A DNA stretch of 21,157 nucleotides, taken from UHGV virus genome UHGV-0323647; one strand, given 5' to 3'. Positions 439 to 21,157 of this stretch are shown here, piece by piece. Within the stretch, counting starts at the first letter, position 1. Each line of letters begins with the position of its first letter. The notes below the pieces were generated by a model. It searched no databases. It worked only from the letters and a program-made list of their open reading frames with translations, and was not told where the DNA came from. This DNA is from a virus. A program made the position numbers and the translations under genes.

Positions 439-515
439 GTGGTCTCGACAATGGCTTATACCCTACACGGGATAACTTAACTGATATCCCTTTTAACGGA
501 TAAACGGAGCCAACA

Positions 516-758: not shown

Positions 759-761
759 GAG

Positions 762-1049: not shown

Positions 1050-1058
1050 GAATCCTCT

Positions 1059-1238: not shown

Positions 1239-1261
1239 AATAACGATTAAGTGAGATGAAT

Positions 1262-1684: not shown

Positions 1685-3096
1685 CCTCGATTAATCCTAT
1701 CTTTGAACCGTTCATTGAGGCGCATCGCTACAAAGTCGCCAAAGGCGGTCGAGGTAGCGGTAAATCATGGGCAATTGCGAGGCTGCTTGTTGAAGCGGCG
1801 CGTCGGCAGCCAGTGCGTATTCTCTGCGCTCGTGAACTGCAAAACAGTATCAGCGATTCGGTAATCCGGCTGCTTGAAGATACTATCGAGCGTGAAGGGT
1901 ATTCGGCTGAGTTTGAAATTCAGCGTTCAATGATTCGCCATCTCGGAACGAACGCTGAATTCATGTTCTACGGCATCAAAAACAACCCAACGAAGATTAA
2001 ATCGCTCGAAGGCATTGATATCTGCTGGGTGGAAGAAGCGGAAGCGGTAACAAAGGAATCGTGGGATATCCTGATACCAACCATCCGCAAGCCGTTTTCC
2101 GAAATATGGGTGAGCTTTAACCCGAAGAACATCCTCGACGATACCTATCAGCGATTCGTTGTAAACCCTCCTGATGATATTTGCCTGCTGACGGTGAACT
2201 ACACCGACAACCCGCACTTTCCTGAAGTTCTCCGTCTGGAGATGGAAGAGTGTAAACGCAGAAATCCGACACTATATCGTCACATCTGGCTTGGTGAGCC
2301 AGTGAGCGCAAGTGACATGGCAATCATCAAACGTGAATGGCTTGAAGCCGCAACCGATGCGCACAAGAAACTCGGATGGAAAGCGAAAGGCGCTGTTGTT
2401 TCTGCGCATGACCCATCAGATACAGGGCCAGATGCTAAAGGTTATGCATCGCGCCACGGTTCGGTTGTTAAGCGCATTGCCGAAGGTCTGCTGATGGATA
2501 TCAACGAGGGTGCTGACTGGGCTACTTCGCTGGCAATTGAAGACGGCGCTGACCATTACCTGTGGGATGGTGATGGCGTCGGTGCGGGCCTACGCAGACA
2601 GACAACGGAAGCGTTCTCCGGCAAGAAAATCACCGCCACGATGTTCAAGGGCAGTGAATCGCCATTCAATGAAGATGCACCGTATCAAGCCGGAGCATGG
2701 GCTGATGAAGTCGTACAGGGTGACAACGTTCGCACTATTGGCGATGTATTCCGCAATAAGCGAGCGCAATTCTATTACGCGCTGGCTGACAGGCTGTATC
2801 TGACATATCGGGCGGTTGTTCACGGTGAGTATGCAGACCCCGACGACATGCTGAGTTTCGACAAAGAAGTGATAGGCGAGAAGATGCTGGAGAAGCTGTT
2901 TGCAGAACTGACGCAGATTCAGCGCAAATTCAATAACAACGGGAAGCTGGAGCTTATGACTAAGGTCGAAATGAAGCAGAAGCTCGGTATTCCATCTCCT
3001 AACCTGGCTGATGCGCTGATGATGTGTATGCATTGCCCGGAGTCGGCTGCGCAACCCGACTATTCCAGTTACTCAATTCCTTGTGGTGTAGGTTGA
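1681..3096 (+). CDS. terL: terminase large subunit (TerL: ATPase plus nuclease)
   Basis: 471 aa. Walker A P-loop KGGRGSGKS near the N-terminus. Size and position immediately after terS and before portal are typical; translationally coupled to terS. Confidence 0.93.
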   Translation: MTSINPIFEPFIEAHRYKVAKGGRGSGKSWAIARLLVEAARRQPVRILCARELQNSISDSVIRLLEDTIEREGYSAEFEIQRSMIRHLGTNAEFMFYGIKNNPTKIKSLEGIDICWVEEAEAVTKESWDILIPTIRKPFSEIWVSFNPKNILDDTYQRFVVNPPDDICLLTVNYTDNPHFPEVLRLEMEECKRRNPTLYRHIWLGEPVSASDMAIIKREWLEAATDAHKKLGWKAKGAVVSAHDPSDTGPDAKGYASRHGSVVKRIAEGLLMDINEGADWATSLAIEDGADHYLWDGDGVGAGLRRQTTEAFSGKKITATMFKGSESPFNEDAPYQAGAWADEVVQGDNVRTIGDVFRNKRAQFYYALADRLYLTYRAVVHGEYADPDDMLSFDKEVIGEKMLEKLFAELTQIQRKFNNNGKLELMTKVEMKQKLGIPSPNLADALMMCMHCPESAAQPDYSSYSIPCGVG

Positions 3097-3097
3097 T

Positions 3098-5296: not shown

Positions 5297-5386
5297 TTAA
5301 CCCATAACGTGCAATGGCTGTCTTTATGAGGCCTGGCACCCTATTGCCTTCCGATGGGCTGAACATCGAGTAAACAGGGGTAACAA

Positions 5387-6280
5387 ATGGACCAGATGGC
5401 AGAAAACACACCAGAAGTTGAAATCGAAACCGACGCGTCAGAGCAGATTCCTGATGATGTCGAACTGGCTGAAGAAGTCGAAACAGAAGATGGCAGTGAG
5501 TCCTCTGGCAATGATGCAGAGGAAGCTACTGAAACTGATGACGACGAATCAGAACAGGAATTCTACTTTGGTGACGAAAAGCTGGATTCGCCAACCAGCG
5601 AAGATAGCGCAGAGCATGGACTGGTAAAACACCTGCGCAAGACGATTAAAGAGAAAGACCGTGAGCTGAAAGAGCTGATGCGTCAGTCTCAGAAACCCGT
5701 CGAGCAGCAGCCGGTAATCACTCAACCACCGCGAATGCCAAAACTGGATGATGAGGACATCGGTTTCGATGAAGAAATCTACCAGCAACGCATGGCTAAG
5801 TGGGCAGAGGATAACGGCAAGTACCAGCAACAGGAGATGGCTCGCAAGCAGAAGGAGCAGGAGCTTCAGGCTGCCTATCAAGAGCGATTATCCAAATATC
5901 AGCAACGTGTTAAGGCTCTCAAAGTTCCTGGCTATCAGGAAGCTGAGCAGGCCGTACTCGAGGAAATCCCCATCGAGACACAAAACGCGATCCTGTTTGA
6001 GTCAGAGAAGCCGGAAATCGTTGTTCTGGCGCTCGGTCGCAACGCTGAACTGCGCAAGCAACTGGCAGAAGCTACCAACCCCGTAGCAATTGGTCGTCTG
6101 CTGGAACGTATCGAATCGAAGGCCAGAATCATGCCAAAAGCAAAAACCACGGCAGCCACAACCCCGACAGTTAAGGGGAGCAACGGCGCAGTAATCAACA
6201 ACCTCGACAAACTGAAAGCCAAGGCGCTGGAAACTGGTGACTGGACGCCGTATTTCGCCGCTAAAAAGGCAAAAAAATAA
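5387..6280 (+). CDS. scaffolding protein (P22 gp8-like)
   Basis: 297 aa, highly acidic N-terminus (many D/E), charged helical middle, basic C-terminal tail (...FAAKKAKK). Sits between portal and coat. Confidence 0.85.
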   Translation: MDQMAENTPEVEIETDASEQIPDDVELAEEVETEDGSESSGNDAEEATETDDDESEQEFYFGDEKLDSPTSEDSAEHGLVKHLRKTIKEKDRELKELMRQSQKPVEQQPVITQPPRMPKLDDEDIGFDEEIYQQRMAKWAEDNGKYQQQEMARKQKEQELQAAYQERLSKYQQRVKALKVPGYQEAEQAVLEEIPIETQNAILFESEKPEIVVLALGRNAELRKQLAEATNPVAIGRLLERIESKARIMPKAKTTAATTPTVKGSNGAVINNLDKLKAKALETGDWTPYFAAKKAKK

Positions 6281-6298
6281 CCTATCGGAGCATTAAGC

Positions 6299-7552
6299 AT
6301 GGCTAACCAATTAGCAAAAGACCTTGAAATCATGTTCGAAAACTACGTTGAAGGCTTTGAGGCCGCCTGCGTAGTTTCCCGTAACGCTAAAAAATTCCGT
6401 CCCGGTGATACTGCAATGCAGCGAGCAGGTGATGTTCTGTATCGTCCGCAGCATTACCACATGAACATTGAAGAAGGCCTCGATCTCAGCAGCAAAACAC
6501 CAACAGCACTGGTTCAGCGCCTTGTTCCTTCTGTGTTCAAGGAGCCGAAAAACATTCTGTACACTCTGGATGCGCGTGAAATGCGTGACCCTGAACATAA
6601 AACTGAAGCTGGTCGCGCCGCAGGTATGCGCCTTGCTGCACAGATTGACTCTGACCTGATTTCCATGGTTACGCAGCGTGCTACTAACGTGATCACGATG
6701 GCTGACTCAACCACAGGTTCACAGGGCCGTGATTTGTGGAACTGTGCGGCAGGTATTGATGCCACTATGACGGCGATTGGTGTACCGCAGGGTATCAACC
6801 GTCGCTCTTTCTGGAACCCCTTCAACTACAAAGACCTTGCTGGCGAGCTTGGTCACCGTGCCTATGCTCAGGGTGCAACCCTGACAGCATACGAAAAAGC
6901 GCAAATCCCTCCGGTTGCGTCCTTCGATAGCTACAAGACCGATATTTCTGGTCGTGTTCCGAAGGGTACAGCAACTTCCATTGCGCTGGCAGCAGCACCT
7001 GCGCACAAGGTTGAAGCGAAAGATGCTAACGATATGCCAGTGGATAACCGACAGGGGACCATTACGGTATCTGCTGAAGGTTTGCAGGTTGGTGATGCGT
7101 TCACCATCGCAGGGGTGAATTCCGTACACCAGATCACCAAAGATACCACCGGGCAGCCGCAGGTATTCCGCGTTCTGGCAGTAAGCGGAACGACAGTAAC
7201 TATCTCCCCGAAAATTCTGCCGCCTGACAACGCGGATGTCGCCAGCCGACCATATGCAAACGTTGATGCTAACGCGGCAAATAGCGCAGCAATCACCATT
7301 CTCAACAAGAACGCAGCACCTGCTAACCTGTTCTGGGCTGATGGTTCTGTTGAGCTGATGTACGGCAAACTGGCGTTCCCGACTGGTCAGGGTCCACAGG
7401 TAATGACAGCAACCACCGAGCAGGGCGCTACGCTGATCATGTCTTACGCCTTCGACCACATCAAAGGCGTAACCACTGCTCGTTTCACCACTCTGTATGG
7501 TTGCTCTGTACTTGTTCCTGAATATACGGGCATCGTTATTGCCGGGCAGTAA
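6299..7552 (+). CDS. major capsid (coat) protein (P22 gp5-like, HK97 fold)
   Basis: 417 aa ORF with GGAG 10 nt upstream of ATG 6299. Position after scaffold and size close to P22/Sf6 coat (about 420-430 aa). Followed by an intrinsic terminator. Confidence 0.9.
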   Translation: MANQLAKDLEIMFENYVEGFEAACVVSRNAKKFRPGDTAMQRAGDVLYRPQHYHMNIEEGLDLSSKTPTALVQRLVPSVFKEPKNILYTLDAREMRDPEHKTEAGRAAGMRLAAQIDSDLISMVTQRATNVITMADSTTGSQGRDLWNCAAGIDATMTAIGVPQGINRRSFWNPFNYKDLAGELGHRAYAQGATLTAYEKAQIPPVASFDSYKTDISGRVPKGTATSIALAAAPAHKVEAKDANDMPVDNRQGTITVSAEGLQVGDAFTIAGVNSVHQITKDTTGQPQVFRVLAVSGTTVTISPKILPPDNADVASRPYANVDANAANSAAITILNKNAAPANLFWADGSVELMYGKLAFPTGQGPQVMTATTEQGATLIMSYAFDHIKGVTTARFTTLYGCSVLVPEYTGIVIAGQ

Positions 7553-7557
7553 TTTTG

Positions 7558-7582
7558 GTGGGGCTTCGGCCCCATTTTTATT
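7558..7582 (+). terminator. rho-independent terminator/attenuator just after the coat gene
   Basis: GGGGC-TTCG-GCCCC hairpin (7560-7573) followed by ATTTTTATT, 8 nt after the coat stop codon. Confidence 0.6.
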
Positions 7583-7593
7583 GGGAGAAGACA

Positions 7594-7782
7594 ATGGCAC
7601 GAACAATGCTCTATAAGCCTGGCAACATGATCACCTGTGGTCAGTTTGCTGTCGATTACATCATTGTTGATGACGAAGAAGTTAAATCTCACCTGAAAAA
7701 AGGTTGGGTAAAAACTCCTGAAGAAACCGCAACGAAGCAAAAAGTGGCTAAGGCGGAAGAAGATGGCGAAAACGAAGGGTGA
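7594..7782 (+). CDS. small hypothetical virion-module protein (62 aa)
   Basis: ATG at 7594 preceded by GGGAGAAG. The ORF-track start at 7555 (no ATG there; first in-frame ATG is 7594) lies inside the terminator hairpin and is unlikely. Acidic C-terminus. Overlaps the next gene by 20 nt. Confidence 0.5.
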   Translation: MARTMLYKPGNMITCGQFAVDYIIVDDEEVKSHLKKGWVKTPEETATKQKVAKAEEDGENEG

Positions 7783-8224
7783 TCTCGTTCTAAAGGCTTT
7801 ACGAAAAGCCGGGCTGTATTCCAATGCCACGTTGACAGATGCTGACCCTCAGGCAATTGAAGATGCTATTAATGACCTCGAAGACATGATGGCAGCATGG
7901 CAGGCGAAAGGTATCGAGCTTGGGTATCAGTTTGCTGATACAGAAAACGGCATCATGCCGTTACCTGACGATGATTCAGGTATCCCTGCATGGGCAAATG
8001 ATGGCGTCGCTTTGAAACTCGCTGTGCAAGTGTGCATGGATAACGTCATTCAGCCATCAGACGCTCTCCTTACCGCTGCTGACAGTGCATATCAAACAAT
8101 CTGTATCGCTTTAACCAAAATACCACCACTTGAGCGGCGAAATGACATGCCTCGCGGTAGTGGTAACAAAAGCGCGTTTACGTGGAATCGGTTTTACATC
8201 GAGAAAGATGATCCGAGTACGTGA
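7763..8224 (+). CDS. head-completion / tail-adaptor protein (P22 gp4-like)
   Basis: 153 aa. N-terminus AKTKGDLVLKALRKAG...TLTD...DLEDMMAAW and C-terminal ...MPRGSGN... resemble P22 gp4 as I recall it. Correct position after coat. Confidence 0.85.
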   Translation: MAKTKGDLVLKALRKAGLYSNATLTDADPQAIEDAINDLEDMMAAWQAKGIELGYQFADTENGIMPLPDDDSGIPAWANDGVALKLAVQVCMDNVIQPSDALLTAADSAYQTICIALTKIPPLERRNDMPRGSGNKSAFTWNRFYIEKDDPST

Positions 8225-8233
8225 GGTGAATAA

Positions 8234-9652
8234 ATGCCGATTCAGCAACTTCCGCTTATGAAAGGCGTCGGCAAAGACTTTCGAAACGCCGACTATATCG
8301 ACTATCTGCCAGTGAATATGTTGGCTACACCAAAAGAAATCCTTAACAGCAGCGGATATCTTCGCTCATTCCCGGGCATTGCCAAACGTTCTGATGTGAA
8401 CGGCGTATCGCGCGGCGTCGAGTACAACATGGCGCAGAGTGCTGTTTATCGCGTGTGTGGTGGGAAGCTCTACAAAGGCGAAAGTGAAGTCGGTGATGTT
8501 GCCGGAAGTGGTCGCGTATCAATGGCGCATGGTCGGACATCTCAGGCTGTAGGCGTTAATGGTCAACTGGTCGAGTATCGCTATGATGGCACGGTTAAAA
8601 CCGTCTCAAACTGGCCTACTGATAGCGGATTCACTCAGTATGAGTTAGGTTCAGTCCGCGACATTACACGCTTACGTGGGCGTTATGCGTGGTCAAAAGA
8701 CGGCACGGATTCATGGTTTATCACTGACCTTGAAGACGAATCGCATCCTGACCGTTACAGCGCACAATATCGCGCAGAATCGCAGCCGGACGGTATCCTC
8801 GGCATCGGAACATGGCGAGACTTCATCGTCTGCTTTGGTTCATCGACGATTGAATATTTTTCCCTGACTGGGGCAACCACCGTTGGTGCCGCTTTGTATG
8901 TCGCACAGCCATCTCTTATGGTGCAGAAAGGCATTGCCGGAACTTACTGCAAAACGCCGTTTGCTGATTCCTATGCGTTTATCAGCAATCCGGCAACAGG
9001 TGCTCCGTCTGTATACATCATCGGCTCCGGTCAGGTATCACCAATCGCCAGCGCGAGCATTGAGAAAATTCTCCGCTCCTACACTGCTGATGAACTGGCT
9101 GATGGCGTGATGGAATCGCTGCGATTTGATGCGCATGAGCTGCTGATTATCCATCTTCCGCGCCATGTTCTCGTGTACGACGCATCTTCAAGCGCCAATG
9201 GTCCGCAATGGTGTGTACTGAAAACAGGCTTGTATGACGATGTGTACCGCGCTATCGACTTCATTTACGAAGGAAATCAGATAACGTGCGGCGATAAGCT
9301 GGAATCGGTGACCGGGAAATTGCAGTTCGATATCAGCAGTCAGTACGACAAGCAGCAGGAACACCTGCTGTTTACTCCGTTGTTCAAAGCGGATAACGCC
9401 AGAGTGTTTGACCTTGAAGTTGAATCTTCAACTGGCGTTGCGCAGTACGCTGACCGCCTGTTCCTCTCTGCAACCACTGACGGCATCAATTACGGTCGTG
9501 AGCAGATGATTGAGCATAATGAACCGTTCGTTTACGACAAACGCGTTTTGTGGAAGCGTGTCGGGCGAATCAGGAAAAATGTTGGCTTCAAATTGCGCGT
9601 TATCACGAAGTCACCTGTCACTCTGTCTGGCTGTCAGATAAGGATTGAGTAA
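8234..9652 (+). CDS. head-completion / tail-hub protein (P22 gp10-like)
   Basis: 472 aa, the same length as P22 gp10. N-terminus [35 protein letters not shown] matches my recollection of gp10. GAGGTG upstream of the ATG. Confidence 0.9.
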
Positions 9653-10500
9653 TGGCGGATTCGAATCTCAATGTGCCGGTAATCATCCAAGCTACGCGGC
9701 TCGATACATCAGTTCTTCCACGCAATATCTTCTCGCAGTCATATCTGCTGTACGTTATCGCACAGGGTACTGATGTTGGTAACGTGGCGAACAAGGCCAA
9801 CGAGGCCGGACAGGGCGCTTATGATGCACAAGCCAGGAACGATGAGCAGGATGTGATTCTGGTCGATCACGAAATTCGACTGGCATCGGCTGAAGCGAAG
9901 ATTCAGGACCACGAAACAAGGATCACTAACGCAGAAGCGGCGATAGTCGGCCTTGATTCACGATTAACGACAGCAGAAAACGATATTGATTACCTGACTG
10001 ATGAAGTTGTCGCCATTCAAAACACGCTTTCCGACCATGAAACGCGCATCGATGCTCTGGAGTATGCCACTACTCGCAAGAAGTCAGAGGTTGTTTACTC
10101 TGGTGTATCTGTAACCATCCCGACAACGCCGACCAACCTTGTTAGCCTGCTGAAAACGCTCACGCCGTCATCCGGCTCGTTGACACCATTCTTCGACACC
10201 GTTAACAACAAGATGGTTGTGTTCAACGAGAACAAAACGCTGTTCTTCAAGCTGTCTATTGTCGGGGCGTGGCCCAGCGGAACCGCCAACAGGTCAATGC
10301 AGCTAACCTTTTCCGGCTCTGTTCCTGACACGTTGGTCAGCAGTCGTAATGCGGCGACAACAACCGACAACATCCTGTTAGCTACGTTCTTCAGCGTGGA
10401 TAAAGACGGCTTTCTTGCCACAAATGGCAGTACGTTAACCATTCAGTCGAATGGTGCGGCTTTTACTGCCACAACCATCAAGATAATCGCGGAGCAGTGA
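9652..10500 (+). CDS. tail needle / cell-envelope-penetrating protein (P22 gp26-like, with C-terminal knob as in Sf6-type needles)
   Basis: 282 aa. N-terminus [43 protein letters not shown] matches the gp26 hub-binding tip. Heptad-like coiled coil with repeated DHETRI. Start overlaps the gp10 stop (TAATG). Confidence 0.85.
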
Positions 10501-10955
10501 TGATTCAGTTCAAACCAACGCGAAACATCGACCTGATAGAAGCCGTGGGAAATCACCCAGACATTATCGCCGGGAGCAACAACGGTGATGGATACGACTA
10601 CAAACCTGATTGCCGTTACTTTGAGGTGAACGTGCACGGGCAGTTCGGCGGCATTGTTTACTATCAGGAGATTCAGCCGCTGACATTCGATTGCCACGCC
10701 ATGTACCTGCCAGAGATTCGCGGCTTCAGCAAGGAAATCGGGCTGGCGTTCTGGAGATACATTCTGACTAACACCACCGTTCAGTGCGTCACATCGTTCG
10801 CTGCACGCAAATTCCGCCACGGGCAGATTTACTGCGCAATGATTGGCCTTAAGCGTGTAGGAACCATCAAGAAATACTTCAAAGGCGTGGATGACGTGAC
10901 GTTTTACAGCGCCACACGCGAAGAACTAATCGACTTCCTGAATCACGGGAGATAG
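10500..10955 (+). CDS. gp14-like virion/ejection-associated protein
   Basis: ATG at 10500 overlapping the gp26 stop (TGATG), with GGAG 5 nt upstream. The ORF-track start at 10497 is a GTG. Position corresponds to P22 gene 14. Confidence 0.75.
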   Translation: MIQFKPTRNIDLIEAVGNHPDIIAGSNNGDGYDYKPDCRYFEVNVHGQFGGIVYYQEIQPLTFDCHAMYLPEIRGFSKEIGLAFWRYILTNTTVQCVTSFAARKFRHGQIYCAMIGLKRVGTIKKYFKGVDDVTFYSATREELIDFLNHGR

Positions 10956-10957
10956 CC

Positions 10958-11650
10958 ATGTTATATGCATTTAAACTGGGCAGAAAACTGCGCGGTGAGG
11001 AACCTTATTGCCCTGAAAAAGGCGGGAAAGGTGGCAGTTCTGATAAAAGCGCAAAGTATGCAGCAGAAGCTCAGAAGTATGCCGCAGACCTGCAAAATCA
11101 GCAGTGGCAGACGATCATGAAAAACCTTGCTCCGTTCACGCCTCTTGCGGAGCAGTATGTTAACCAGCTTCAGAACCTTTCCAGTCTAGAAGGTCAGGGG
11201 CAGGCACTTAATCAGTATTACAACTCTCAGCAGTATAAAGACCTTGCAGGTCAGGCTCGTTACCAGAGTCTTGCTGCTGCGGAGGCGACGGGTGGACTTG
11301 GTTCGACAGCCACAAGCAATCAACTGGCTACGATCGCGCCGACACTAGGTCAGTCTTGGTTATCAAATCAGATGAGCAATTACAACAATCTGGCAAACGT
11401 TGGGCTTGGTGCGCTGCAAGGTCAGGCAAACGCCGGGCAGACGTACGCCAACAACATGAGCAGCATTGCACAGCAAAGCGCAGCTCTTGCCGCTGCTAAT
11501 GCCAATAAACCATCAAGTCTTCAGACTGCAATTAGCGGTGGCACGTCTGGTGCGATTGCCGGTGCAGGTCTTGCCAGCCTTTTGGGAACATCAACACCTT
11601 GGGGCGCTGGAATTGGTGCTGGTATCGGATTGCTTGGCTCGTTGTTTTAA
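10958..11650 (+). CDS. ejection (internal virion) protein, gp7-like
   Basis: 230 aa. N-terminus MLYAFKLGRKLRGEEPYCPEKGGKGGSSDKSAKYAAEAQKY and Gly/Ala-rich hydrophobic C-terminus (...GAGIGAGIGLLGSLF) match P22 gp7 as I recall it. Confidence 0.75.
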   Translation: MLYAFKLGRKLRGEEPYCPEKGGKGGSSDKSAKYAAEAQKYAADLQNQQWQTIMKNLAPFTPLAEQYVNQLQNLSSLEGQGQALNQYYNSQQYKDLAGQARYQSLAAAEATGGLGSTATSNQLATIAPTLGQSWLSNQMSNYNNLANVGLGALQGQANAGQTYANNMSSIAQQSAALAAANANKPSSLQTAISGGTSGAIAGAGLASLLGTSTPWGAGIGAGIGLLGSLF

Positions 11651-11659
11651 GGGGTAATC

Positions 11660-12967
11660 ATGGCTACTTGGCAAGGAACAAACGGCGGATTGTTGGCTGG
11701 TATCGGCGGCGTCAACTCAAACGCTCCGAGCGTAAATGACATCGGCAATACGCTTCAGCTTATCAGGCAGAACAATGATATTGAGCGTTCAGGCGCTAAC
11801 AATGTTGGGCTGACTGCTTTGCAAGGTCTTCAGCAGGAAAAGCAGGCTCAGCGGCAGAAAGAATTTCAGCAGGCGTACGCTAATGCTTATGCGTCTGGTG
11901 ATCGCGGTGCTTTGCGTCAGTTGGCTACTCAATATCCAGACCAGATTGAATCCGTTCGTAAAGGCATGGGATTCATTGATGAAGATCAGCGTAATTCTAT
12001 CGGCACCTTAGCGGCTGGCGCACGCCTTGCGTCATCGTCTCCAGAAGCAATGCAATCATGGCTGCAAAACAACGCCAAGGAACTGACTCGCGTCGGTGTT
12101 GACCCTAATAACGTTGCTCAGATGTATCAGCAGAATCCTTCAGGATTTGGTGAGTTTGTTGATCACCTTGGAATGGCTGCGCTTGGTCCGATTGATTACT
12201 TCAATGTTCAGGATAAGATGGCAGATCGCCAGCTGACCATGCGCGGTCAGGATCTGAACTCGCAAACCGCCGCCCGGAATCAGGCAATCACAATGCGTGG
12301 GCAAGATATCCAGGCAAATTTAGGTCAGCAGCGCATTAATCTGGACGCAGAAACAAACCGCATTAACTACGAAAATAAGCGCCTTGACCGGATGCTATCA
12401 GCAGAAACTAACGACCTGAAGCGCCAGGAAATACAGAGCCGCATAGCAGCCAACAACCAGAAGTTGCAGCAGAAGCAGCAAGAGCTAAATGATGGCTACA
12501 AAGACGGCATCAACACTCTCACAACCAGCATGTTCACTCTGAACGATATCGTTAATTCTCCTGCACTTAAGAGCATTACAGGCTTACGTGGAGCAATCCC
12601 CAACGTTCCAGGCTCACAAGCTGCAGACACTCAGGCGCGACTTGATACCTTTAAATCCCAAGCATACCTGACAGCGGTTCAGGCCATGAAAGGACTTGGT
12701 GCACTTTCTGATGCCGAGGGCAAAAAGCTCGACCAGGCTGTTGGTTCGCTGCAGAACTCGCAGAGCGAGGAGTCCTTTCGTCGCAACGCTGGCGTCATCC
12801 TGAACACGCTCAACCAGAAGCGTAATGAGGCGGTTGGTAAGTACGTTCAGCAAAACGGTATCAAGCGAGTGGAAGCGCCTCAGGCTTCTATAGATTACCT
12901 GAAGCAGCACCCCGAGCTGTCAATCGACTTCATTAATCGCTACGGATATCTTCCATCTTTGGGGTAG
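11660..12967 (+). CDS. ejection (internal virion) protein, gp20-like
   Basis: 435 aa, Gln/Asn-rich low-complexity helical protein, second of three consecutive ejection-protein genes. GGGG upstream of the ATG. Confidence 0.7.
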   Translation: MATWQGTNGGLLAGIGGVNSNAPSVNDIGNTLQLIRQNNDIERSGANNVGLTALQGLQQEKQAQRQKEFQQAYANAYASGDRGALRQLATQYPDQIESVRKGMGFIDEDQRNSIGTLAAGARLASSSPEAMQSWLQNNAKELTRVGVDPNNVAQMYQQNPSGFGEFVDHLGMAALGPIDYFNVQDKMADRQLTMRGQDLNSQTAARNQAITMRGQDIQANLGQQRINLDAETNRINYENKRLDRMLSAETNDLKRQEIQSRIAANNQKLQQKQQELNDGYKDGINTLTTSMFTLNDIVNSPALKSITGLRGAIPNVPGSQAADTQARLDTFKSQAYLTAVQAMKGLGALSDAEGKKLDQAVGSLQNSQSEESFRRNAGVILNTLNQKRNEAVGKYVQQNGIKRVEAPQASIDYLKQHPELSIDFINRYGYLPSLG

Positions 12968-12970
12968 TAA

Positions 12971-15601
12971 ATGGCTAATTACCGTGATTTGTTAGAGCAG
13001 GCTGGCGCACGTTACGGTGTGCCAGAAGGGTTGATGACTGCACTGGGTGCCAAGGAGTCTTCTTACAACCCTGCAGCAGTAAGCTCCTCCGGGGCTGTAG
13101 GATTGACTCAGGTCATGCCTGGGACATGGCGTGATATGGGTTATACCGATGAGCAAATGCAAAACCCCGAATATCAGGCTGACGCTGGCGCGCGCTATCT
13201 GGCAAAGATGTACCAGCAGTTTGGTAACTGGCGTGACGCTCTTCAGGCTTATCACGACGGTCCCGGCAACGTTATGAAGGCAAAGCGTGGTGAATATACG
13301 CCAGGACCTGAAGGCCGCGGTTACGTTGATGATCGCTTTGCTCAATGGGCGGGTGACCCGGTGACAGACTCAACAGTCGAACAGCGCGCCACCTCTGCAA
13401 AGGTACATCCTCAGCAAGACCCTAACAACCCGTTTGCACAACTGGAAGTACAGTCATCCGAACAAGTATCGGCATCAGGTGTGCAGTCAGACCCAAATAA
13501 TCCATTTGCTCAGATTGAGCAGCAGGCAGCCAGTCAGCAGCCACCTCAACCCGTAAGTTCTGTCGCACCGAAACCTGTTCAGCAACAAACAGTTAATCAG
13601 GCCAATAATGAACCAGCACGTGAAGAACCATCATTGATGCAACAAGCTGGCGATTGGCTCACAGGTGGTCAAAGTGCAGGGCAAATTGCAGAGCAGGCTG
13701 GTCGTGGTCTGGTAAACATACCATTTGACGTATTGCAGGGTGGCGCAAGTCTGATTAATGCAATCAGCCAGGGGCTTGGTGGCCCCAAGGTTTTGGATGA
13801 TGTTTATCGTCCAGTAGATCGACCGACAGACCCCTACGCGCAAGCCGGTGAAACAATTGGCGGGTATCTCCTGCCAATTGGTACAGCGGCAAAAGCTGCT
13901 GGAGCGCCAGCAAAGCTCGCTGGAGATATCGGTTCCGCAGGAAACATGATTGCAGGTTCTCTTGCTGATGCTGCAAATCAGGAGGGCGACTTTGCACAAA
14001 ATGCTGCCATTAACGGTGGTATCAATATTGGTGCTCAAGGCGTTCTTTCAGGTGTCGGGCGCGTTATTGCGCCAAGGGTTTCACATGCTCTTGGTGGTGC
14101 AGCACTGAATTCTGCTAATGATGTTTCCAGGATGGCAAAGTCAGGTGCTGGGCGTCAGTCAATTGCCAGTCAGGCCGCTAATGTGTCCGAAGGTGTAGCA
14201 AAAGCGGCTGAGTCTGCTGGAATTGATATAAACGCATTAACACCAGGAATGCGATCTGGAAGTCGTGGAATTGCACAAGCCGAAGGCGCATTGGCATCAA
14301 CACCAGGAATTGTTCAGGACGCCCATCAGACAGCATTTAACGAAATATCATCAAAGTTAAGTCGAAACCTTGATGAATTTGGGGCCGCATCTGGAACGGC
14401 ATCAGAAAAAAGTGCGGCTATAAAACAAAGGATTCTTCAAAATCTTGATCAGATGAAGGATGCCGAGCGCGCGGCATGGGATGACGTGCGGTCAACAATG
14501 CCAAATCAAAAAGCAAGAATGCTAAATGGTAATGCCGTTATTCAGGCAGAGCGATCTGCTGGCATACCGCTTACTCCTGAAATGAAACAGTTTGTTCAGG
14601 CAAACAATCAAGGTGGAGTAACATTTGATGGCATGAAAGCATGGAGAGCGAAATTTGCTGATGCGGAGCAAAAATATAAGCGTAGCGGAGAGGCAAATGC
14701 GGCAAGGAGAGCAGGGGAAATACGCCGGGCAATTACTGATGATATGCGCACAATGGCGGAAAACGGCGGATTTCTTGATGACTGGCAGAAAGCTAATGAT
14801 CTGTCTAAAGCGAGGTTATCAGCACAAGAGAGTGCAGAGTCTGTTTTCGGGCGTGATTTGGCAACAGATGCACTGATTACGAATGGAGTAAAATCCCTTC
14901 AATCATCGTCAGCTAAAGGTCTTAATGGTCCTGCTGGGTTCCATTCTATGATCCGCGCGCTGCCAGAATCAGAGCGTGTTCCTGCTATATCATCAATGTT
15001 GCAAGATGCTATCTCGCATGGTGTACGTGGTGGCAAAGCTGATGCAGCAGGAATTAACCATATCGCAGGGATACTTACCCCACAAAATGTAAAAGCCATT
15101 AGCAGATATTCCTCAGATCTCGGAAGAATTGCTGATGCATATGGCACTCTTGCAAGAGCAGCAGTGAAACCTCAGCAGTATATTGAAAGAACAGGGAGAA
15201 CTGCCAATGTACTACGCGATCTGGATGCTGGTTTATCCAACGTCACATCAACAGTGTTAAATGCAATTGCCAACTCAACATCAGGTGCCATTGTTGGTGG
15301 AGCAGGAGGGGGCATTGCAGGCGCTGCCGCAGGTGCTTTAGTTGGCGCCGGGTTAAAAGGTGCTGTATCTAAAATTGCCACCACACGTAGTGGTCGGTAT
15401 GCGATAGAGAAAGCAGTTCAGGAAGCAACTAAAGCAGTAAGAGCAGGCGGAAGTAAAGAAGCATTAGCGGCGGCGGAACGCAGATTTATGGCAAATAAAG
15501 CTGCCGTAAAAGCGATACGTGATACAGTCGGAAACGAAGAGTTCAATCGCTTAGCGAGGGCTGGCATTGTAGCGTCGCTAAGCGGAATAGCACAGGAGTA
15601 A
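12971..15601 (+). CDS. ejection (internal virion) protein, gp16-position, with N-terminal lytic-transglycosylase (SLT)-like domain
   Basis: 876 aa. The N-terminal roughly 110 aa carry SLT-family motifs (GAKESSYNP with candidate catalytic Glu, [18 protein letters not shown]). The remainder is Ala/Gly/Gln-rich with a hydrophobic Gly-rich segment ([22 protein letters not shown]). Confidence 0.8.
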
Positions 15602-15925
15602 TTAATCATCCATGGATGGATTGAGCTTATCTCGTGTTGATGTGGCGATTTGTCCTACATTTCTAAGCCAAGATTTCAAATCCTTGATATTGTCATTGAT
15701 TTCATGAATATCTTCTTTTTTTAATCTTTTAACATTATTTTCAATAATTTCAATGGATTGCTCAATATCAGATATAGTGAATGATAGTTTGTTCTTCTCA
15801 TCTTTTATTGAGTTTTTAAGTGCTTCGTTCTCAGTCTTGAGGTCAGATATCTTTTGTTTTAAAGATGCCAGTTGGTACTGAACCACAATGAGTGCGATAG
15901 CTATCACGATAACTGTTGTATACAC
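15602..15925 (-). CDS. small membrane-anchored coiled-coil protein (107 aa), unknown function; candidate exclusion/abortive-infection factor
   Basis: GTG start at 15925 preceded on the - strand by AAGGAGG (complement of 15931-15937) with a 5-nt spacer. N-terminal hydrophobic helix YTTVIVIAIALIVVQY, then a K/E-rich helical region. AT-rich. Stop codon directly abuts the gp16-like stop (convergent, zero spacer). Confidence 0.65.
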   Translation of the reverse strand: MYTTVIVIAIALIVVQYQLASLKQKISDLKTENEALKNSIKDEKNKLSFTISDIEQSIEIIENNVKRLKKEDIHEINDNIKDLKSWLRNVGQIATSTRDKLNPSMDD

Positions 15926-16216
15926 ACCAACCTCCTTAGTTTTGTGCAGGATACCAGATGATAATGTATTGGTGGAGTGGTGTGTGAAAACGTGTCAACG
16001 ACAAACCATCCACAACTTGGACGAATGATTTAGCAAAAAGTGCTATTTTTGGTGTTTAGTGTCATAGAAAAGTGAATAGCTCACTTTTCAACATTGCATG
16101 AAACTTGCAGGAAATGTGACATTACCTTATAGGTAACTTCGGCGAAAATGCAGTAAATGTGAAACGTAATGATTTAAACGTGTCGAGAAAGTGGTTGTAA
16201 GTTAGCCTCTGAAGGA

Positions 16217-16245
16217 TTGATGACAGCTTTGTTATGGTATTAAAT
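16217..16245 (+). promoter_or_regulatory. candidate sigma70 promoter for the Panacea-like operon (TTGATG, 15 bp spacer, extended -10 TGgTATTAA)
   Basis: TTGATG at 16217-16222 and TG-n-TATTAA at 16235-16243, in a 368-bp AT-rich divergent intergenic region. Identified by eye only; a perfect TTGACA at 16251-16256 lacks a good -10. Confidence 0.3.
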
Positions 16246-16299
16246 GCAACTTGACACAGTTGTATACATAGCTGCGGCTATCAAGATGGAGGTATGTTT

Positions 16300-16743
16300 A
16301 TGCTCACTTGTTTTGATGTCGCCGACTACTTCTTGGCGCATTGCGATGAAGAAAGTGGCGACATTATCTCTAACCTAAAAATTCAGAAGTTGACGTATTA
16401 TGCCCAAGGGTTTTCTCTGGTTCTTCTGGGTAAGCCGCTATTTAATGAGAAAATTGAAGCCTGGATGCATGGGCCAGTAGTTCCTGAATTGTATCGTAAA
16501 TATAGGGACTGTGGTAACGGAGCTTTACCTGCGCCAGAAAACTTTGACGCTAAAAAATTCAGTGAAGATGAAATTGAATTGCTGGATGAGGTGTATAAAG
16601 TTTATGGTCAGTTTTCTGCCTGGAAACTGCGCAATATGACTCACGAAGAGCAGCCATGGAAAGATGCTTACATTGAGGGTGCGGTTAGCCAAGAAATCAC
16701 ACTTGATTCTATGAAAGGTTTTTTCAAAACGTTAATTAACTGA
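16300..16743 (+). CDS. Panacea-domain (DUF4065, SocA/GepA-like) protein; putative antitoxin/immunity component
   Basis: Segment NLKIQKLTYYAQGFSLVLLGKPLFNEKIEAWMHGPVVPELYRKY matches the conserved core I associate with DUF4065/Panacea proteins. GGAGG at 16288-16292 sits 7 nt before ATG 16300; the ORF-track ATG 16294 is only 1 nt after the SD. Confidence 0.7.
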   Translation: MLTCFDVADYFLAHCDEESGDIISNLKIQKLTYYAQGFSLVLLGKPLFNEKIEAWMHGPVVPELYRKYRDCGNGALPAPENFDAKKFSEDEIELLDEVYKVYGQFSAWKLRNMTHEEQPWKDAYIEGAVSQEITLDSMKGFFKTLIN

Positions 16744-16748
16744 CGTGT

Positions 16749-17171
16749 ATGTCTAGAGTTAAGGGAAGAATAAAACAGAGGGATAAAGAGAGCTCTGCTA
16801 CTGTTGGCCTCTCTATCCATCACGAATCTCATGATGTAGACAAAAGTCCGCCTGTATTTTCTCTTAGATACCTACAAAAGGGGTATTGCCTAGATTGCTG
16901 CCAAAAGCATGAAAAGGCAGCATTTGCAGATAGGCTGTTCAGGTTAAGTCAGATGTCATGGGATGAGATACGAAAATCTGATAAACACGGGCTTGGGACG
17001 GAAAAAATTGCCAGAAACGCGATAAAGGCTCCGATTCCTAAGCATGTTACTCAAGATGTGGATTTCATTGCGTTCAGATTTTGCTCTAAGGCACCTATGG
17101 TTGGTTATAAGATAGGAGCCACTTTTTATGTCTTATGGCTCGACAGGGAGTTCAAGCTATACAAGCACTAA
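16749..17171 (+). CDS. hypothetical protein (140 aa) co-operonic with the Panacea-like gene; candidate toxin/effector partner
   Basis: ATG 5 nt after the upstream stop with no SD of its own, suggesting translational coupling. No recognised domain. Basic N-terminus, CLDCC cysteine cluster, C-terminal strand ...GATFYVLWLDREFKLYKH. Followed immediately by an intrinsic terminator. Confidence 0.6.
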   Translation: MSRVKGRIKQRDKESSATVGLSIHHESHDVDKSPPVFSLRYLQKGYCLDCCQKHEKAAFADRLFRLSQMSWDEIRKSDKHGLGTEKIARNAIKAPIPKHVTQDVDFIAFRFCSKAPMVGYKIGATFYVLWLDREFKLYKH

Positions 17172-17172
17172 T

Positions 17173-17198
17173 AAAACCCACCGTCAGGTGGGTTTTTT
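17173..17198. terminator. intrinsic terminator (potentially bidirectional) ending the Panacea-like operon
   Basis: AAAACCCACC-GTCA-GGTGGGTTTTTT: GC-rich 6-bp stem, tetraloop, T6 tract; A-tract on the 5' side gives a U-run on the other strand too. Confidence 0.75.
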
Positions 17199-17211
17199 AT
17201 AAGGAGCAATC

Positions 17212-17331
17212 ATGATTTACCCATCAAACAACCCACCAGTTTGCCTGATTGGATGCCAGCCTTGCAGTTTTTATGGAATTAATTATGCCATGCTCAAGAG
17301 CCTTGTTAGCATCCAAAATGGTCGAGTCTGA
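17212..17331 (+). CDS. questionable small ORF (39 aa) with strong RBS; may be the 5' part of a frameshifted/decayed gene
   Basis: AAGGAG at 17201-17206, 5-nt spacer, ATG 17212. Product [39 protein letters not shown]. Overlaps long open frames on both strands that lack credible starts. Confidence 0.25.
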
Positions 17332-17614
17332 TATCAGGGATGCCCACCTAATATGGGTTCCGATGTCGATATTGAACGTCTCAACGAAGCGATCAAGATC
17401 GTTATCGAGGCATTTCCCGTACTCTCTCAATCTGGCATGGTCGGCGGCTGGGGAGGCAAAGCCCCATAATAGAGGATGTAACAGGAATCTTGATAATGGG
17501 TTTGCGAAACGTTCTGAGCCAGACGGACCAACGAATCTTTCCGCATGGATGAGACTTAAGAATAAAGAATTACCTCCTTCAGTTCATAACTACTGACAGA
17601 TAACCAACGCAACG

Positions 17615-17639
17615 ACCCAGCTTCGGCTGGGTTTTTTTA
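17615..17639 (+). terminator. strong rho-independent terminator upstream of the tailspike gene
   Basis: ACCCAGC-TTCG-GCTGGGT stem-loop followed by TTTTTTT; same architecture as the 17173-17198 terminator. Confidence 0.8.
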
Positions 17640-17696
17640 TGCCCAAAATTCACCGTAGCCATGCTGCGGCGATTCCTTGTATCTGGAGCAAATTAA

Positions 17697-19475
17697 ATGA
17701 CAGATTCAATAAATGCCAATGTTGTAGTTAGCATGCCTTCGCAACTCTTCACTATGGCGCGTTCTTTTAAAGCCGTAGCCAATGGCAAAATTTATATCGG
17801 TCAGGTTGACACTGACCCGGTAAATCCAGAAAACCAGATTCAGGTTTATGTGGAGAGCGAAGACGGTTCTCACGTTCCTGTTTCTCAACCAATCATCATT
17901 AACGCTGCTGGTTACCCTGTATATAACAGACAGATTGCCAAGTTCGTAACTGTACAGAATCACTCCATGGCTGTGTATGATGCGTATGGTGCACAACAAT
18001 TCTATTATCCTGATCTACTGAAATATTCTCCAGACCAGTTAAGGGCTGAGCTTTCTGGCCCTGATGGCGCATCTCTGGTTGGTTATGGAGATGAAACTGT
18101 CAAAGATGCTCTTGACAATAATGCCCATAAAATAGACACATTGAGGAGTGACTTGGCTGCTGATGATGGCTTTCGCCACATAGGCAACTTTCTCAATTTA
18201 GAGGCGCTGAGGGATTCAATGCCATTAGTTGCTGGAGAAATTGTTTATGTAGCTTCAGCAGCAAGTGCTACAGCAACTGAAAAACATTATGGTGGTGGGT
18301 ATTTCCAGTCTTTCGACAATAGCACATCACAGATTGCCGATGATGGAGGGATTGTTATTGTTCCATCAACTGGAACGTTGGCGTGGCGTCGCATTAATTT
18401 CACGGCCTACGATATGCAGTTTTGGGGGGTTAAGCCTGATGGTGCGACGGATAACGCGGAAGCCATTACGAAGGCGACGCAGTATGCAAAAGATAATCAT
18501 GTTGAACTTGTATTCCCTGCTGGTAATGTAAAGTCCTCACAAGCATTTCCTTTTTACTCCAGAATGTCAGTAAGGGGAGCCGGCAGAGAAAGCTCATTTT
18601 TCAGTAAAACAACAAATAACAAGTTTACCATTACATCAGAGGTGGAAGTAGACGCGCTCATTGTATTCATTCCTGATGTTTATGACCCAAGTGGCGTAAC
18701 TATTGATACATTTTGCTTTAAACCAAAACTTGAGGGCATTACTTTCCAGAGAGATGATTTGACTTCAGATAACATGTGTTACTACAGCGTGTGGGCAGAA
18801 AAATTAGCTGCTCCAATCATGAGGGATTTAAATTTTATAGGGCATTATATCGGAATGTATGGTAAAAACTGGTTTTTATTTGAGGCAACATCTGTTCAGT
18901 TTTTAGGAGTGAACGGTAGAACTTTCCAAGGCATAAGTTGCTTAAATTTGAGTGGGCCAACATACTTCCTTTCAGGAACAAGCCTTAACTGGAATCTTGT
19001 AAGTGTTGTAAACGCACAAAATGCCTACGAAATTTCAGGGCAGCAGTATAGTCATCTTAATAACTGTACAGCAGAAGGAATTAAACCAATGCCAGGAGAG
19101 ACACTTGCCACTGCATTCCGTTTTAAGAATCCTACATCAATAACTTTAACCTCATGCGGAACTGAAAATGTTCAGGGAGAACAATTCAGGATAGAGATGG
19201 CGCCCACACCATCATTTAAAGGTTCGGTTGTAATCAATAACTTTCAAGTTGTGGATCAGGTCAATCCATCCACGCCAACTAAATTTTTTGTTATTGATTC
19301 TGCTAATGTTGGTACATTATCCGTATCATTAATTGGTGGTGAATTAACAAGAAACACTACGCTATCAAACCTACAACAACCAACCGTATCAGGCACAAAC
19401 TGTGTGTTAAATAATGTTGGGTGCTGGGTTGAGTCACCTTCTGTTTCTGGAGGCGCTGTCTACAAGACGCTTTAG
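17697..19475 (+). CDS. tailspike protein: P22-type head-binding N-domain fused to a divergent beta-helix-like receptor-binding/depolymerase body
   Basis: 592 aa. N-terminal roughly 110 aa ([59 protein letters not shown]...) match the P22 gp9 head-binding domain as I recall it. Downstream the sequence turns AT-rich and carries motifs typical of pectate-lyase-like tailspikes ([23 protein letters not shown]). Confidence 0.9.
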
Positions 19476-19476
19476 A

Positions 19477-19506
19477 ATGAGAGGCGGGTAGCCGCCTCAT
19501 TTTTTG
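19477..19506. terminator. bidirectional intrinsic terminator shared by convergent tailspike and acyltransferase genes
   Basis: AATGAGAGGCGG-GTA-GCCGCCTCATT hairpin followed by TTTTT on the + strand. The minus-strand acyltransferase stop codon lies inside the stem. Confidence 0.7.
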
Positions 19507-20636
19507 ATGAATCTGTACTCTACATACTTAAACGTGTATGCAGTGACAATTGTTGTAATAGATACAAGAGATAGTATAAGCGTCCAAAATCCAACGGCAG
19601 ATATATTATTTAAATTGAATATAAAGCCAATAAATTTTATAACCAATGCGTTAATTATTAGGTGAAGAAGATAAGAGCTATAACTAGCCTCGCCAAGATA
19701 GACAAGAGGTTTAAATGTGAAAACGGAAGGCTTTGTCATTACAATTACATTAAATAGGAGAGTGGTTATTAAAAACCTTTCCCATCCATATCCGCTAAAC
19801 ATCGTGTAAAGTAAGTAAATAATAGTTAATGCTGAAGCAGCGGAAAAGAAATTGTTTGTTATCTTATTGCTACTTAACATTACAGATACCATTTTCATCC
19901 TATTGAAAAGAATGGCAGACAAAGCTCCAGATATAAAATAAACCCAAACAACCTGCCCAGAATACAAGTCATTTGCTGCATATCCAACTGAGAGCACAGA
20001 ACCGATAACTGCAATTGATTTGAATCTAATAGCTGCACATATCACTGGAAGCATGCAATAGAATTTCCATTCATATGGAAGTGTCCATATCACCGCGTTT
20101 AATGAGTAAGTCCTGAATCCATTCACCCATATATCACTTCCGAAAAATCCAAAGCCAAATAGATTTATTGCCTGCCTTGCTGTTGTAGTTAAATCCTGAC
20201 CACCATGCGACCACATCAATGTAAGAACTAGAACTATAGTTGATGCTATCATGTACATAGGAACAAGGCGTTTAACTCGAGATACGAAAAACATCTCCCA
20301 GTTAATTTTATTGCCTGTTTTTATGATCTTATCAAAGAATAAAAAACCTGTTATACAAAAGAAAATTTGCACACCAACATCACCAGCATGAGCGAAAACC
20401 CAGAAGTTAGATGTGTTAACTGATAATGGATTAAATCCATTATTTGACAGAGAAAATACAGCATGGTTTAAAACAACAAGAAGAGCCGCTATACCTCGAA
20501 TGCCATCAATATGAAGATAACGCTTCCCTGAGAAATCAATATGATTGTAAAAGTTAAAGCATACAAAGACTCTGTTTATTCCCATTGATGCCGCAAGACA
20601 TAACAAGGCAATCCCAATATTAAATAAAGTTTCCAT
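19497..20636 (-). CDS. oac: integral-membrane Acyltransferase-3 family protein; likely O-antigen O-acetyltransferase (serotype-conversion gene)
   Basis: 379 aa, many hydrophobic segments. N-terminal signature RYLHIDGIRGIAALLVVLNHAVF typical of Acyltransferase-3 proteins. Strongly AT-rich. Located between tailspike and integrase, where Sf6 carries oac. The symbol is by analogy, not proven orthology. Confidence 0.8.
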   Translation of the reverse strand: METLFNIGIALLCLAASMGINRVFVCFNFYNHIDFSGKRYLHIDGIRGIAALLVVLNHAVFSLSNNGFNPLSVNTSNFWVFAHAGDVGVQIFFCITGFLFFDKIIKTGNKINWEMFFVSRVKRLVPMYMIASTIVLVLTLMWSHGGQDLTTTARQAINLFGFGFFGSDIWVNGFRTYSLNAVIWTLPYEWKFYCMLPVICAAIRFKSIAVIGSVLSVGYAANDLYSGQVVWVYFISGALSAILFNRMKMVSVMLSSNKITNNFFSAASALTIIYLLYTMFSGYGWERFLITTLLFNVIVMTKPSVFTFKPLVYLGEASYSSYLLHLIINALVIKFIGFIFNLNNISAVGFWTLILSLVSITTIVTAYTFKYVEYRFIKK

Positions 20637-20887
20637 CTAGATCTCACATAACAAGTTGTCGCACAAATGTTAGCACATAGGCGAGTCAATAATAATCAGA
20701 AGGTTACAATCACGGTGATCGTTTATCAACAAAACTACTTAAAATAAGTAATACGGTAAATGCTTATCTTCATATGGATGCGAACAAAAGAGCTTTTACC
20801 AACCAGTACTTACTAAGCATTGTCAGCAGTGGACTGCATTCAGTTTGATGGCAGTACGGTTTTGATGAGACAACGCTGAGACACACA

Positions 20888-20923
20888 AAGCCTTGCACTG
20901 GATTACAAGGCTTTGTGCTTTTC
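20888..20923. other. perfect 9-bp inverted repeat (AAAGCCTTG / CAAGGCTTT) with 10-nt loop, 19 bp beyond the integrase stop; terminator or attP-associated structure
   Basis: AAAGCCTTG-CACTGGATTA-CAAGGCTTT followed by GTGCTTTT on the + strand. Lies in the non-coding gap between oac and int. Confidence 0.35.
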
Positions 20924-20941
20924 GATAGTGGTTAAGGTGGA

Positions 20942-21157
20942 TCACTCCACCTTTTCATCAAGCCAGTCCGCCCACCACTGCATCATTTCTCTGCGCTTAT
21001 CGAGATACTGAGCATGGTTGTAAATCCCGCGCACAGATCCGCCGTTGGCATGTGCCAGTTGCACTTCAATAGCATCAGCGGGCCATTCGTGCTCGTTCAT
21101 AATCGTGCTGAATTCATGCCTGAATCCGTGACCGCTTTCCAGACCCTCATAGCCGAT
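20942..21157 (-). CDS. int: tyrosine integrase, C-terminal catalytic end (5' part beyond window)
   Basis: The reverse strand translates without stops to ...GHGFRHEFSTIMNEHEWPADAIEVQLAHANGGSVRGIYNHAQYLDKRREMMQWWADWLDEKVE*. This contains the tyrosine-recombinase box (HxxR ... catalytic Y in RGIYNH) and a P4-family-like WADWLD C-terminus. Not in the supplied ORF track because the start lies outside the window. Confidence 0.85.
   Translation of the reverse strand: MGYEGLESGHGFRHEFSTIMNEHEWPADAIEVQLAHANGGSVRGIYNHAQYLDKRREMMQWWADWLDEKVE

Follow-up and report, generated by a model that had tools for sequence, protein, structure and literature searches.

A probable O-antigen acetylase of the Acyltransferase-3 family encoded tail-to-tail with the tailspike of a P22/Sf6-like Escherichia coli phage

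Phage-encoded O-antigen acetylases alter the serotype of their hosts, the epitopes targeted by vaccines and the susceptibility to other phages. Several of these enzymes belong to the Acyltransferase-3 (AT3) family. Oac of phage Sf6 catalyzes the 2-O-acetylation of RhaI, which creates the group 6 antigen and leads to superinfection exclusion. OacB of phage Sf101 performs the 3/4-O-acetylation of RhaIII in the Shigella flexneri O-antigen. Among the AT3 proteins of E. coli phages, experimental evidence of O-antigen acetylation and superinfection immunity exists only for Oac of phiV10, a Uetakevirus phage of E. coli O157:H7. In Salmonella, the prophage-borne OafB (GtrC of BTP1) protects against the BTP1 tailspike (PMC9558356). 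Here we describe a gene of the same family at positions 19497-20636 (- strand) of a 21,157-nucleotide stretch of the virus genome UHGV-0323647, the whole of which is called the window below. Its product is probably an OacB-like, AT3-only O-antigen O-acetyltransferase of the inner membrane, with 11 transmembrane (TM) helices; its carrier, a P22/Sf6-like E. coli phage, would use the gene as a moron for lysogenic conversion. The protein likely masks a sugar of the host surface against further phages, because its gene occupies the slot of the serotype-converting gene of Sf6. With Sf6 and phiV10 the concept became textbook knowledge, and the window gene is an ordinary further example of it.

In Sf6, the tailspike gene (gene 14, + strand) is followed by a terminator, oac (- strand), a putative oac promoter and int (- strand), with attP lying beyond int. 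A preliminary description of the window had stated that oac lies between tailspike and int in Sf6, and the Sf6 annotation agrees. The order and orientation of the window features match those of Sf6 (tailspike -> hairpin <- acyltransferase <- int), as follows:

17697..19475, + strand: tailspike gene, 592 aa; aa 1-117 form a P22-type head-binding adaptor and aa 118-592 the receptor-binding domain (RBD), of beta-helix type.
19481..19508, unstranded: intergenic hairpin GAGGCGG-GTAG-CCGCCTC (19481-19498) with a T-run, from a terminator scan, the sequence and folding of both strands.
19497..20636, - strand: gene of an AT3-only membrane acyltransferase, 379 aa, with an ATG start, from the open reading frame (ORF) call.
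Parts of the acyltransferase (predicted): extra N-terminal TM helix, aa 2-26; 10-TM AT3/TmAT core, aa 41-378.
Motif residues of the acyltransferase: D44, R47, H58, F92, F93, G97, F100, R120, R123, W184, E189, G237, Y319, Y322, E373.
20637..20941, - strand: AT-rich non-coding leader of 305 bp between int and the acyltransferase gene, from the sequence.
20942..21157, - strand: 3' end of a P4/Sf6-type tyrosine integrase gene (HGFRHEFSTIMNEH…RGIYNHAQYLDKRREMMQWWADWLDEKVE*), with a frame open to the window end and a weak PF00589 match.

The acyltransferase ORF was recovered exactly as first described: the virion genes are on the other strand, and the ORF converges with the + strand tailspike gene, whose product begins with a P22 Head_binding domain (PF09008, E 1.5e-61). 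The acyltransferase is polytopic: hydrophobic residues make up 53.6% of it, Kyte-Doolittle analysis gives at least 9 segments, and the structural model has 11 helices. Residues 39-58, where the AT3 signature had been claimed, read RYLHIDGIRGIAALLVVLNH. The profile search that had been suggested as a check returned PF01757 (Acyl_transf_3) at E 9e-21 and 74.7 bits (Pfam cutoff 31), the match spanning aa 43-366 of the protein and positions 4-322 of the 326 of the profile. All Pfam matches belonged to the AT3 clan and none to SGNH. In a search of 5.8 billion proteins, PF01757 was carried by 120/120 homologues among the matches listed. The window protein is thereby assigned to the Acyltransferase-3/TmAT superfamily. 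It terminates at residue 379, immediately past the last core helix, giving an AT3-only architecture with no fused SGNH domain. No NCBIfam model matched it at E <= 0.01; any housekeeping family of the OpgC or WecH type would be among these models. From its sequence, it is classed neither with the AT3-SGNH proteins (OafA, OafB, OatA) nor with the housekeeping OpgC/MdoC or WecH types.

The gene is intact and its catalytic residues are complete. Comparison with an 85%-identical copy indicated purifying selection (dN/dS 0.12 at dS 0.66). As the preliminary description had remarked, the gene is very AT-rich: its GC content is 34.5%, vs 41.6% for the tailspike gene and 50.1% for positions 1-15600, which hold the virion genes. 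Such a low value is typical for a horizontally acquired moron.

Conserved motifs were examined in an alignment of 13 sequences, including Sf6 Oac and Sf101 OacB, and in sets of 69 and 70 sequences from the wider clade. Over the 69-70 homologues, R47, H58, F92, F93, F100, R120, R123, W184, E189, G237, Y319, Y322 and E373 are invariant; those kept also in Sf6 Oac and Sf101 OacB are the same residues less F100. The first core helix contains D-x-x-R-x10-H as D44-G-I-R47...H58, with R47 and H58 invariant in all three alignments. In the second core helix, FFxI[ST]G / FxxxxG is present as F92-F93-C-I95-T96-G97, where G97 is fully or almost fully invariant. The third core helix has RxxR at its cytoplasmic end, as R120-V-K-R123; both arginines are invariant and correspond to R73/R76 of Oac and R116/R119 of OacB. 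Mutagenesis has shown that R14, H25, R69 and R72 are essential in OafA (PMC7448272), and R47, H58, F98, R116 and R119 in OacB (PMC8952252). The window residues at these essential OacB columns are R47, H58, F100, R120 and R123.

An AlphaFold model, computed from the 69-sequence alignment without the Sf101 OacB row, reached a pLDDT of 93.7 and a pTM of 0.92. It is all-helical to residue 378 and displays 11 long helices. The predicted fold is that of the TmAT superfamily, including its 10-TM core. When an N-out/C-in orientation was assumed and lysines and arginines were counted by hand on the AlphaFold helices, 20 of 26 fell in cytoplasmic parts and 4 in periplasmic parts. This predicted distribution fits the positive-inside rule for an N-out/C-in, OacB-like topology. 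A sequence search of the PDB with the acyltransferase profile gave no match, no bacterial AT3 domain structure having been solved, and a Foldseek search returned nothing significant.

Over positions 1-17600, the window shares ~95% identity with P22-like phages of E. coli and Shigella (Huey, CUS-3, Sf101, Kapi1, HK620), and the window phage is taken to be a P22/Sf6-like (Lederbergvirus) E. coli phage. Seven contigs, each from an independent sample, encode the exact acyltransferase protein, and in all of them its gene converges with that of the same tailspike; between contigs, there is variation in the adjacent immI/moron modules and even in the type of integrase. In E. coli GCA_005398505.1 (L007), an integrated prophage has a 98% copy as its outermost gene, next to torT. 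The pair of tailspike and acyltransferase genes is also carried by the isolates from which SRR6112177, SRR29490163 and SRR6060197 derive. The segment formed by the tailspike RBD and the acyltransferase had no near match by megablast in 5,426 complete E. coli genomes or in 50,697 phage records (INPHARED). The contexts examined, for the acyltransferase gene and for its relatives, were all phages or prophage remnants, without an adjacent SGNH gene.

The pairing with a tailspike extends to more distant relatives. The genes P0009 (62% identity), P0012 (53%), P0019 (42%) and P0067 (32%) are located in phiV10/epsilon15-like (Uetakevirus) prophages, between the tailspike and holin genes and convergent with the tailspike, which is the slot of phiV10 oac. 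A Citrobacter relative (45% identity) is convergent with a siphovirus tailspike. We surveyed 80 unselected IMG/VR loci encoding relatives, these loci not being independent of one another. An ORF of at least 400 aa was present within 150 bp of the AT3 stop codon in 34 of the 75 assessable loci, and all 34 were convergent; on the upstream side, such an ORF was found in 9/63 loci. Among 37 convergent ORFs of this size located up to 600 bp downstream, at least 20 had Head_binding, Tail_spike_N or Phage_tail_fib domains, and three were UmuC-like. In one E. coli lineage, an insertion sequence element with a DDE_Tnp_1 transposase (L012 9202-10477) is located between P0019 and its tailspike.

The intergenic region was described as a bidirectional terminator, and this holds for its stem only, because a T-run is present on the + strand only. 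The stop codons of the two genes are separated by 21 bp, and the 7-bp, GC-rich stem overlaps the acyltransferase stop codon. The stem can form on either strand, at -18.8 and -13.2 kcal/mol (z -3.6 and -3.1). On the + (tailspike) strand, the hairpin is followed by the T-run ATTTTTTGAT, whereas the tail on the - strand is UCAUUCUAAAG, without a U-tract. For the tailspike transcript, the hairpin thus has the appearance of a convincing intrinsic terminator; for the acyltransferase transcript, the same reading of the sequence gives a bare hairpin only. A terminator is annotated at the corresponding position in Sf6.

On the other side of the acyltransferase gene, 6 independent contigs and the integrated prophage L007 have an identical leader, which is presumed to contain the promoter of the acyltransferase gene. 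An extended -10 candidate recognized by eye, TGCTAACAT at 20675-20667 (- strand), was the sole promoter candidate seen. A second hairpin, CACAAAGCCTTG...CAAGGCTTTGTG, is located just 3' of the int stop codon. The full-length integrase of the nearly identical contig L003 has 385 aa and is 98% identical to Sf6 Int. A lambda-type Int replaces the Sf6-type Int in L001, a phage form (8158-9153), and in L007 (9387-9700); both keep, upstream of the acyltransferase gene, an 84-bp relic of the 3' end of the Sf6-type int (IYNHAQYLDKRREMMQWWADWLDEKVE*), corresponding to window positions 20942-21025. Two positions were considered for the attachment site. A core inside int at ~21025, where similarity to L007 is lost, was rejected, since L001 and L007 have a lambda-type Int and the 84-bp relic. 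An attP between int and the acyltransferase gene, as for P22 gtr, was rejected too, attP being located beyond int in the Sf6 annotation.

Which glycan the enzyme modifies cannot be read from its sequence, as the preliminary description had cautioned, and this is still true, though the nearest characterised relatives of the tailspike RBD are O103-type O-antigen tailspikes. The RBD has a weak pectate-lyase-like match (PF12708, E 1.1e-3), and PF27114 is precomputed on identical tailspike copies. Its closest characterised relatives are the tailspikes of TL-2011b (42.8% identity), PAS7 (39.6%) and Ro103C3lw (32%), which have been assigned to the O103 O-antigen (PMC11522302). A published criterion for tailspike subtypes (PMC10408124) asks for 30% identity or more with coverage of 60% or more, and by this measure the window RBD would fall into one cluster with these O103-type tailspikes. 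Its relatives therefore tend to favour O-antigen as the target. In TL-2011b, the 'hypothetical protein' encoded directly after the O103-type tailspike (L108 5020-6126; JQ011317 37880-38986) is itself an AT3 protein (PF01757, E 6.7e-24). Its gene is co-directional with the tailspike gene, not convergent, and the protein is ~21% identical to the window protein.

It is unlikely, though the most probable of the alternatives, that the gene encodes a functional AT3 enzyme acting on another envelope glycan (group 1/4 capsule, colanic acid, enterobacterial common antigen (ECA) or lipopolysaccharide core), with or without receptor masking. AT3-only enzymes do acylate many glycans, such as ECA for WecH, poly-N-acetylglucosamine for IcaC and osmoregulated periplasmic glucans (OPGs) for OpgC (PMC9558356). 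However, Sf6 Oac, Sf101 OacB and phiV10 Oac, which are all the experimentally characterised tailspike-adjacent phage AT3s, act on O-antigen, as does the phage-borne OafB of BTP1 (PMC9558356). Beta-helix tailspikes target capsules too, and the distant partial matches of the RBD include exopolysaccharide depolymerases of Erwinia phages, but its full-length relatives are the O103-type tailspikes, and tailspikes of Lederberg- and Uetakevirus phages have been described as typically specific for O-antigen (PMC10408124). At 27-30% identity to OacB the substrate is not readable, yet the protein matches no NCBIfam equivalog for housekeeping enzymes of the OpgC or WecH type.

The preliminary description had proposed that the phage modifies its own receptor, the strategy of Sf6. 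Our analysis supports this proposal through the residues known to be essential in relatives, the predicted TmAT fold, the Sf6 slot, the Int at 98% identity, the position at the prophage edge and the recurrent pairing with tailspikes. The nature of the acyl group (acetyl), the acceptor (O-antigen), the exclusion phenotype and expression in the lysogen are what we infer from these elements. By homology with OafA, OafB, Oac and OacB, acetyl-CoA would enter the pore of the 10-TM core from the cytoplasmic side, the pore model being taken from OafB (PMC9833829). The CoA 3'-phosphate would be held by R47 and R120-x-x-R123, and the thioester would be processed by H58, at mid-membrane in the first core helix. 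On the periplasmic side, an O-antigen repeat, either linked to undecaprenyl pyrophosphate or polymerised, would then receive the acetyl group on one of its hydroxyls. The tailspike of the phage itself, encoded tail-to-tail with the acyltransferase, would fail to bind or cleave the acetylated O-antigen of the lysogen. The expected outcome would be a block of superinfection by the same or related phages and a change of serotype, as for Sf6, BTP1 and phiV10.

Two variants of this mechanism, namely modification of the O-antigen with a non-acetyl group (e.g. succinyl or propionyl) or the need for an unlinked periplasmic partner, are together improbable. Succinyl or longer acyl groups are moved by some AT3s (IcaC, OpgC, macrolide acyltransferases; PMC9558356), but those that modify O-antigen have so far all been acetyltransferases (PMC9558356). 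How AT3-only proteins complete the transfer without an SGNH domain is presented as an open question in PMC9558356; however, Oac and OacB are active when expressed alone from plasmids (PMC8952252), and no SGNH gene was adjacent in any of the contexts examined.

Several observations weigh against assignment of the window protein as an O-antigen acetylase of lysogens. The nearest characterised enzyme, OacB, is only 27-30% identical to it, and the Oac proteins of Sf6 and phiV10 19-23%. Because no characterised relative exceeds 30% identity, the acceptor sugar, the position modified and the acyl group cannot be transferred by homology, and AT3 enzymes also act on ECA, OPGs, capsules, peptidoglycan and secondary metabolites (PMC9558356). 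The acyltransferase matched no PADLOC model, and no NCBIfam equivalog names it. The link between the RBD and O103 rests on 32-43% identity. A scan of the - strand of the leader for the sigma-70 consensus gave no site; expression in the lysogen is thus assumed, since no consensus sigma-70 promoter was found upstream. The copies in Cedecea and Leclercia are in degraded prophage or insertion sequence contexts, with no intact adjacent tailspike. Finally, AT3 and RBD divergences are discordant: identities are 85% (AT3) and 78% (RBD) relative to L028, vs 62% and 84.5% relative to L008. This discordance indicates that the pair is not strictly co-inherited and that its halves recombine independently.

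That the gene is silent or decaying AT-rich cargo, acquired horizontally and without a role for phage or lysogen, is very improbable: the undetected consensus promoter, the possible silencing by H-NS of a gene so low in GC and its rarity in the complete E. coli genomes and phage records would fit such an origin, but the ORF is intact with all catalytic residues, dN/dS is 0.12 over a dS of 0.66, the identical protein occurs in 7 independent samples and its position is kept across several phage types.

With an O-antigen acetylase as the preferred reading, the most interesting part is the possibility that the tailspike RBD and the AT3 protein act as a reassorting two-gene cassette common to several phage genera. 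The RBD (aa 118-592) is 84.5% identical to that of the Uetakevirus tailspike associated with P0009 (L008), from assembly GCA_054858845.1, while the N-terminal adaptors are unrelated (window 18048-19475 was compared with L008 3254-4666 and L028 5162-6976). Because the same RBD (84%) is thus found on P22-type and phiV10-type adaptors, with an AT3 gene of this clade beside each, we tentatively suggest a mobile 'recognise-and-mask' cassette that reassorts across Lederbergvirus, Uetakevirus and siphovirus backbones. On the same tentative footing, the OacB-like 11-TM clade would define undescribed O-acetylated variants of E. coli O-antigens, possibly O103-related. The clade has no characterised member above 30% identity to the window acyltransferase, whose gene is rare: the 5,426 complete E. 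coli genomes contain no near match to it. If an E. coli O-antigen is acetylated, lysogens would represent a cryptic serotype variant that resists phages and tailspike reagents directed against that serogroup. Undescribed O-acetylated variants of this kind would matter for serotyping and for the choice of phages for therapy or of tailspikes for diagnostics. The tail-to-tail pairing, recurring in several phage genera, also provides a practical rule: a tailspike beside an AT3 gene would indicate the substrate of the enzyme.

A two-gene module occupies the moron slot that follows the gene of the gp16-like ejection protein and precedes the tailspike gene:

16294-16743, + strand: protein with a SocA/Panacea antitoxin domain (PF13274, E 2.2e-24).
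16749-17171, + strand: 140-aa protein with no Pfam match and a PADLOC match to the NsnC C-terminus (E 1.8e-7).

The module (16294-17171) is possibly a toxin-antitoxin pair of the PanA type or a defence pair; in sister contigs its place is taken by ant/arc/mnt or HicAB modules. Directly after gp16, a 107-aa ORF (15602-15925, - strand) displays weak coiled-coil-type matches (Pfam; PADLOC JetC/LmuB, E ~5e-4), and it is called as a gene in L002 and L005 too. The interval of ~525 bp upstream of the tailspike gene (17172-17696) holds no convincing gene, only a 115-aa ORF with a TTG start and a 68-aa antisense ORF; in L005, a 103-aa gene is called on the opposite strand of the matching interval.

Among the known systems, OacB of Sf101 is the best characterised relative, with 27-30% identity over ~89% of the length. 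Both proteins are AT3-only with an extra N-terminal TM helix, making 11 TM helices (predicted for the window protein); for OacB, 11 TM helices in an N-out/C-in topology have been reported (PMC8952252). D44, R47 and H58 even have the same numbers in the two proteins, and equivalents of F98, R116 and R119 of OacB are present, whereas its W71 and S146, essential though not conserved, have no clear equivalents in the window protein. As in the window, the oacB gene of the P22-like phage Sf101 is convergent with the tailspike gene and near int. Sf101 differs in its tailspike RBD, in its host, which is Shigella and not E. coli, and in the orientation of its integrase gene.

Sf6 Oac shares the R-x10-H, FFxISG and RxxR motifs with the window protein. 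However, it is only 22% identical (pairwise E 7e-5) and has 333 aa and 10 TM helices, without the N-terminal helix. The window gene is a different gene in the Sf6 oac slot and not an ortholog. The oac gene of phiV10 is convergent with the tailspike gene too, and its annotation names acetylation of the O157 antigen in the service of superinfection immunity (PMC9558356), but it belongs to another phage backbone and its product is 19-23% identical to the window protein, which is not significant pairwise (E 1.5). In our alignment, phiV10 Oac (L110 4637-5653) has a serine in place of the first arginine of RxxR and lacks equivalents of E189 and E373; it appears to be an atypical AT3, or to be misaligned at ~20% identity.

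OafA and OafB of Salmonella have in common with the window protein the AT3 core, the R/H/RxxR residues and the proposed acetyl-CoA pore. In these proteins, a C-terminal periplasmic SGNH domain, connected through an 11th TM helix, performs the final transfer, whereas the extra TM helix of the window protein is N-terminal. The only solved structures with a TmAT fold, human HGSNAT and fungal GWT1, are 13-15% identical to it; these proteins are eukaryotic, with other acceptors and extra domains. Altogether, with identities of 19-30%, the window protein is not an ortholog of Sf6 Oac, OacB or phiV10 Oac. By structure and context, it belongs with the class formed by Oac, OacB, OacD and phiV10 Oac: an AT3-only protein of a temperate phage, encoded by an AT-rich moron beside the tailspike gene and near int.

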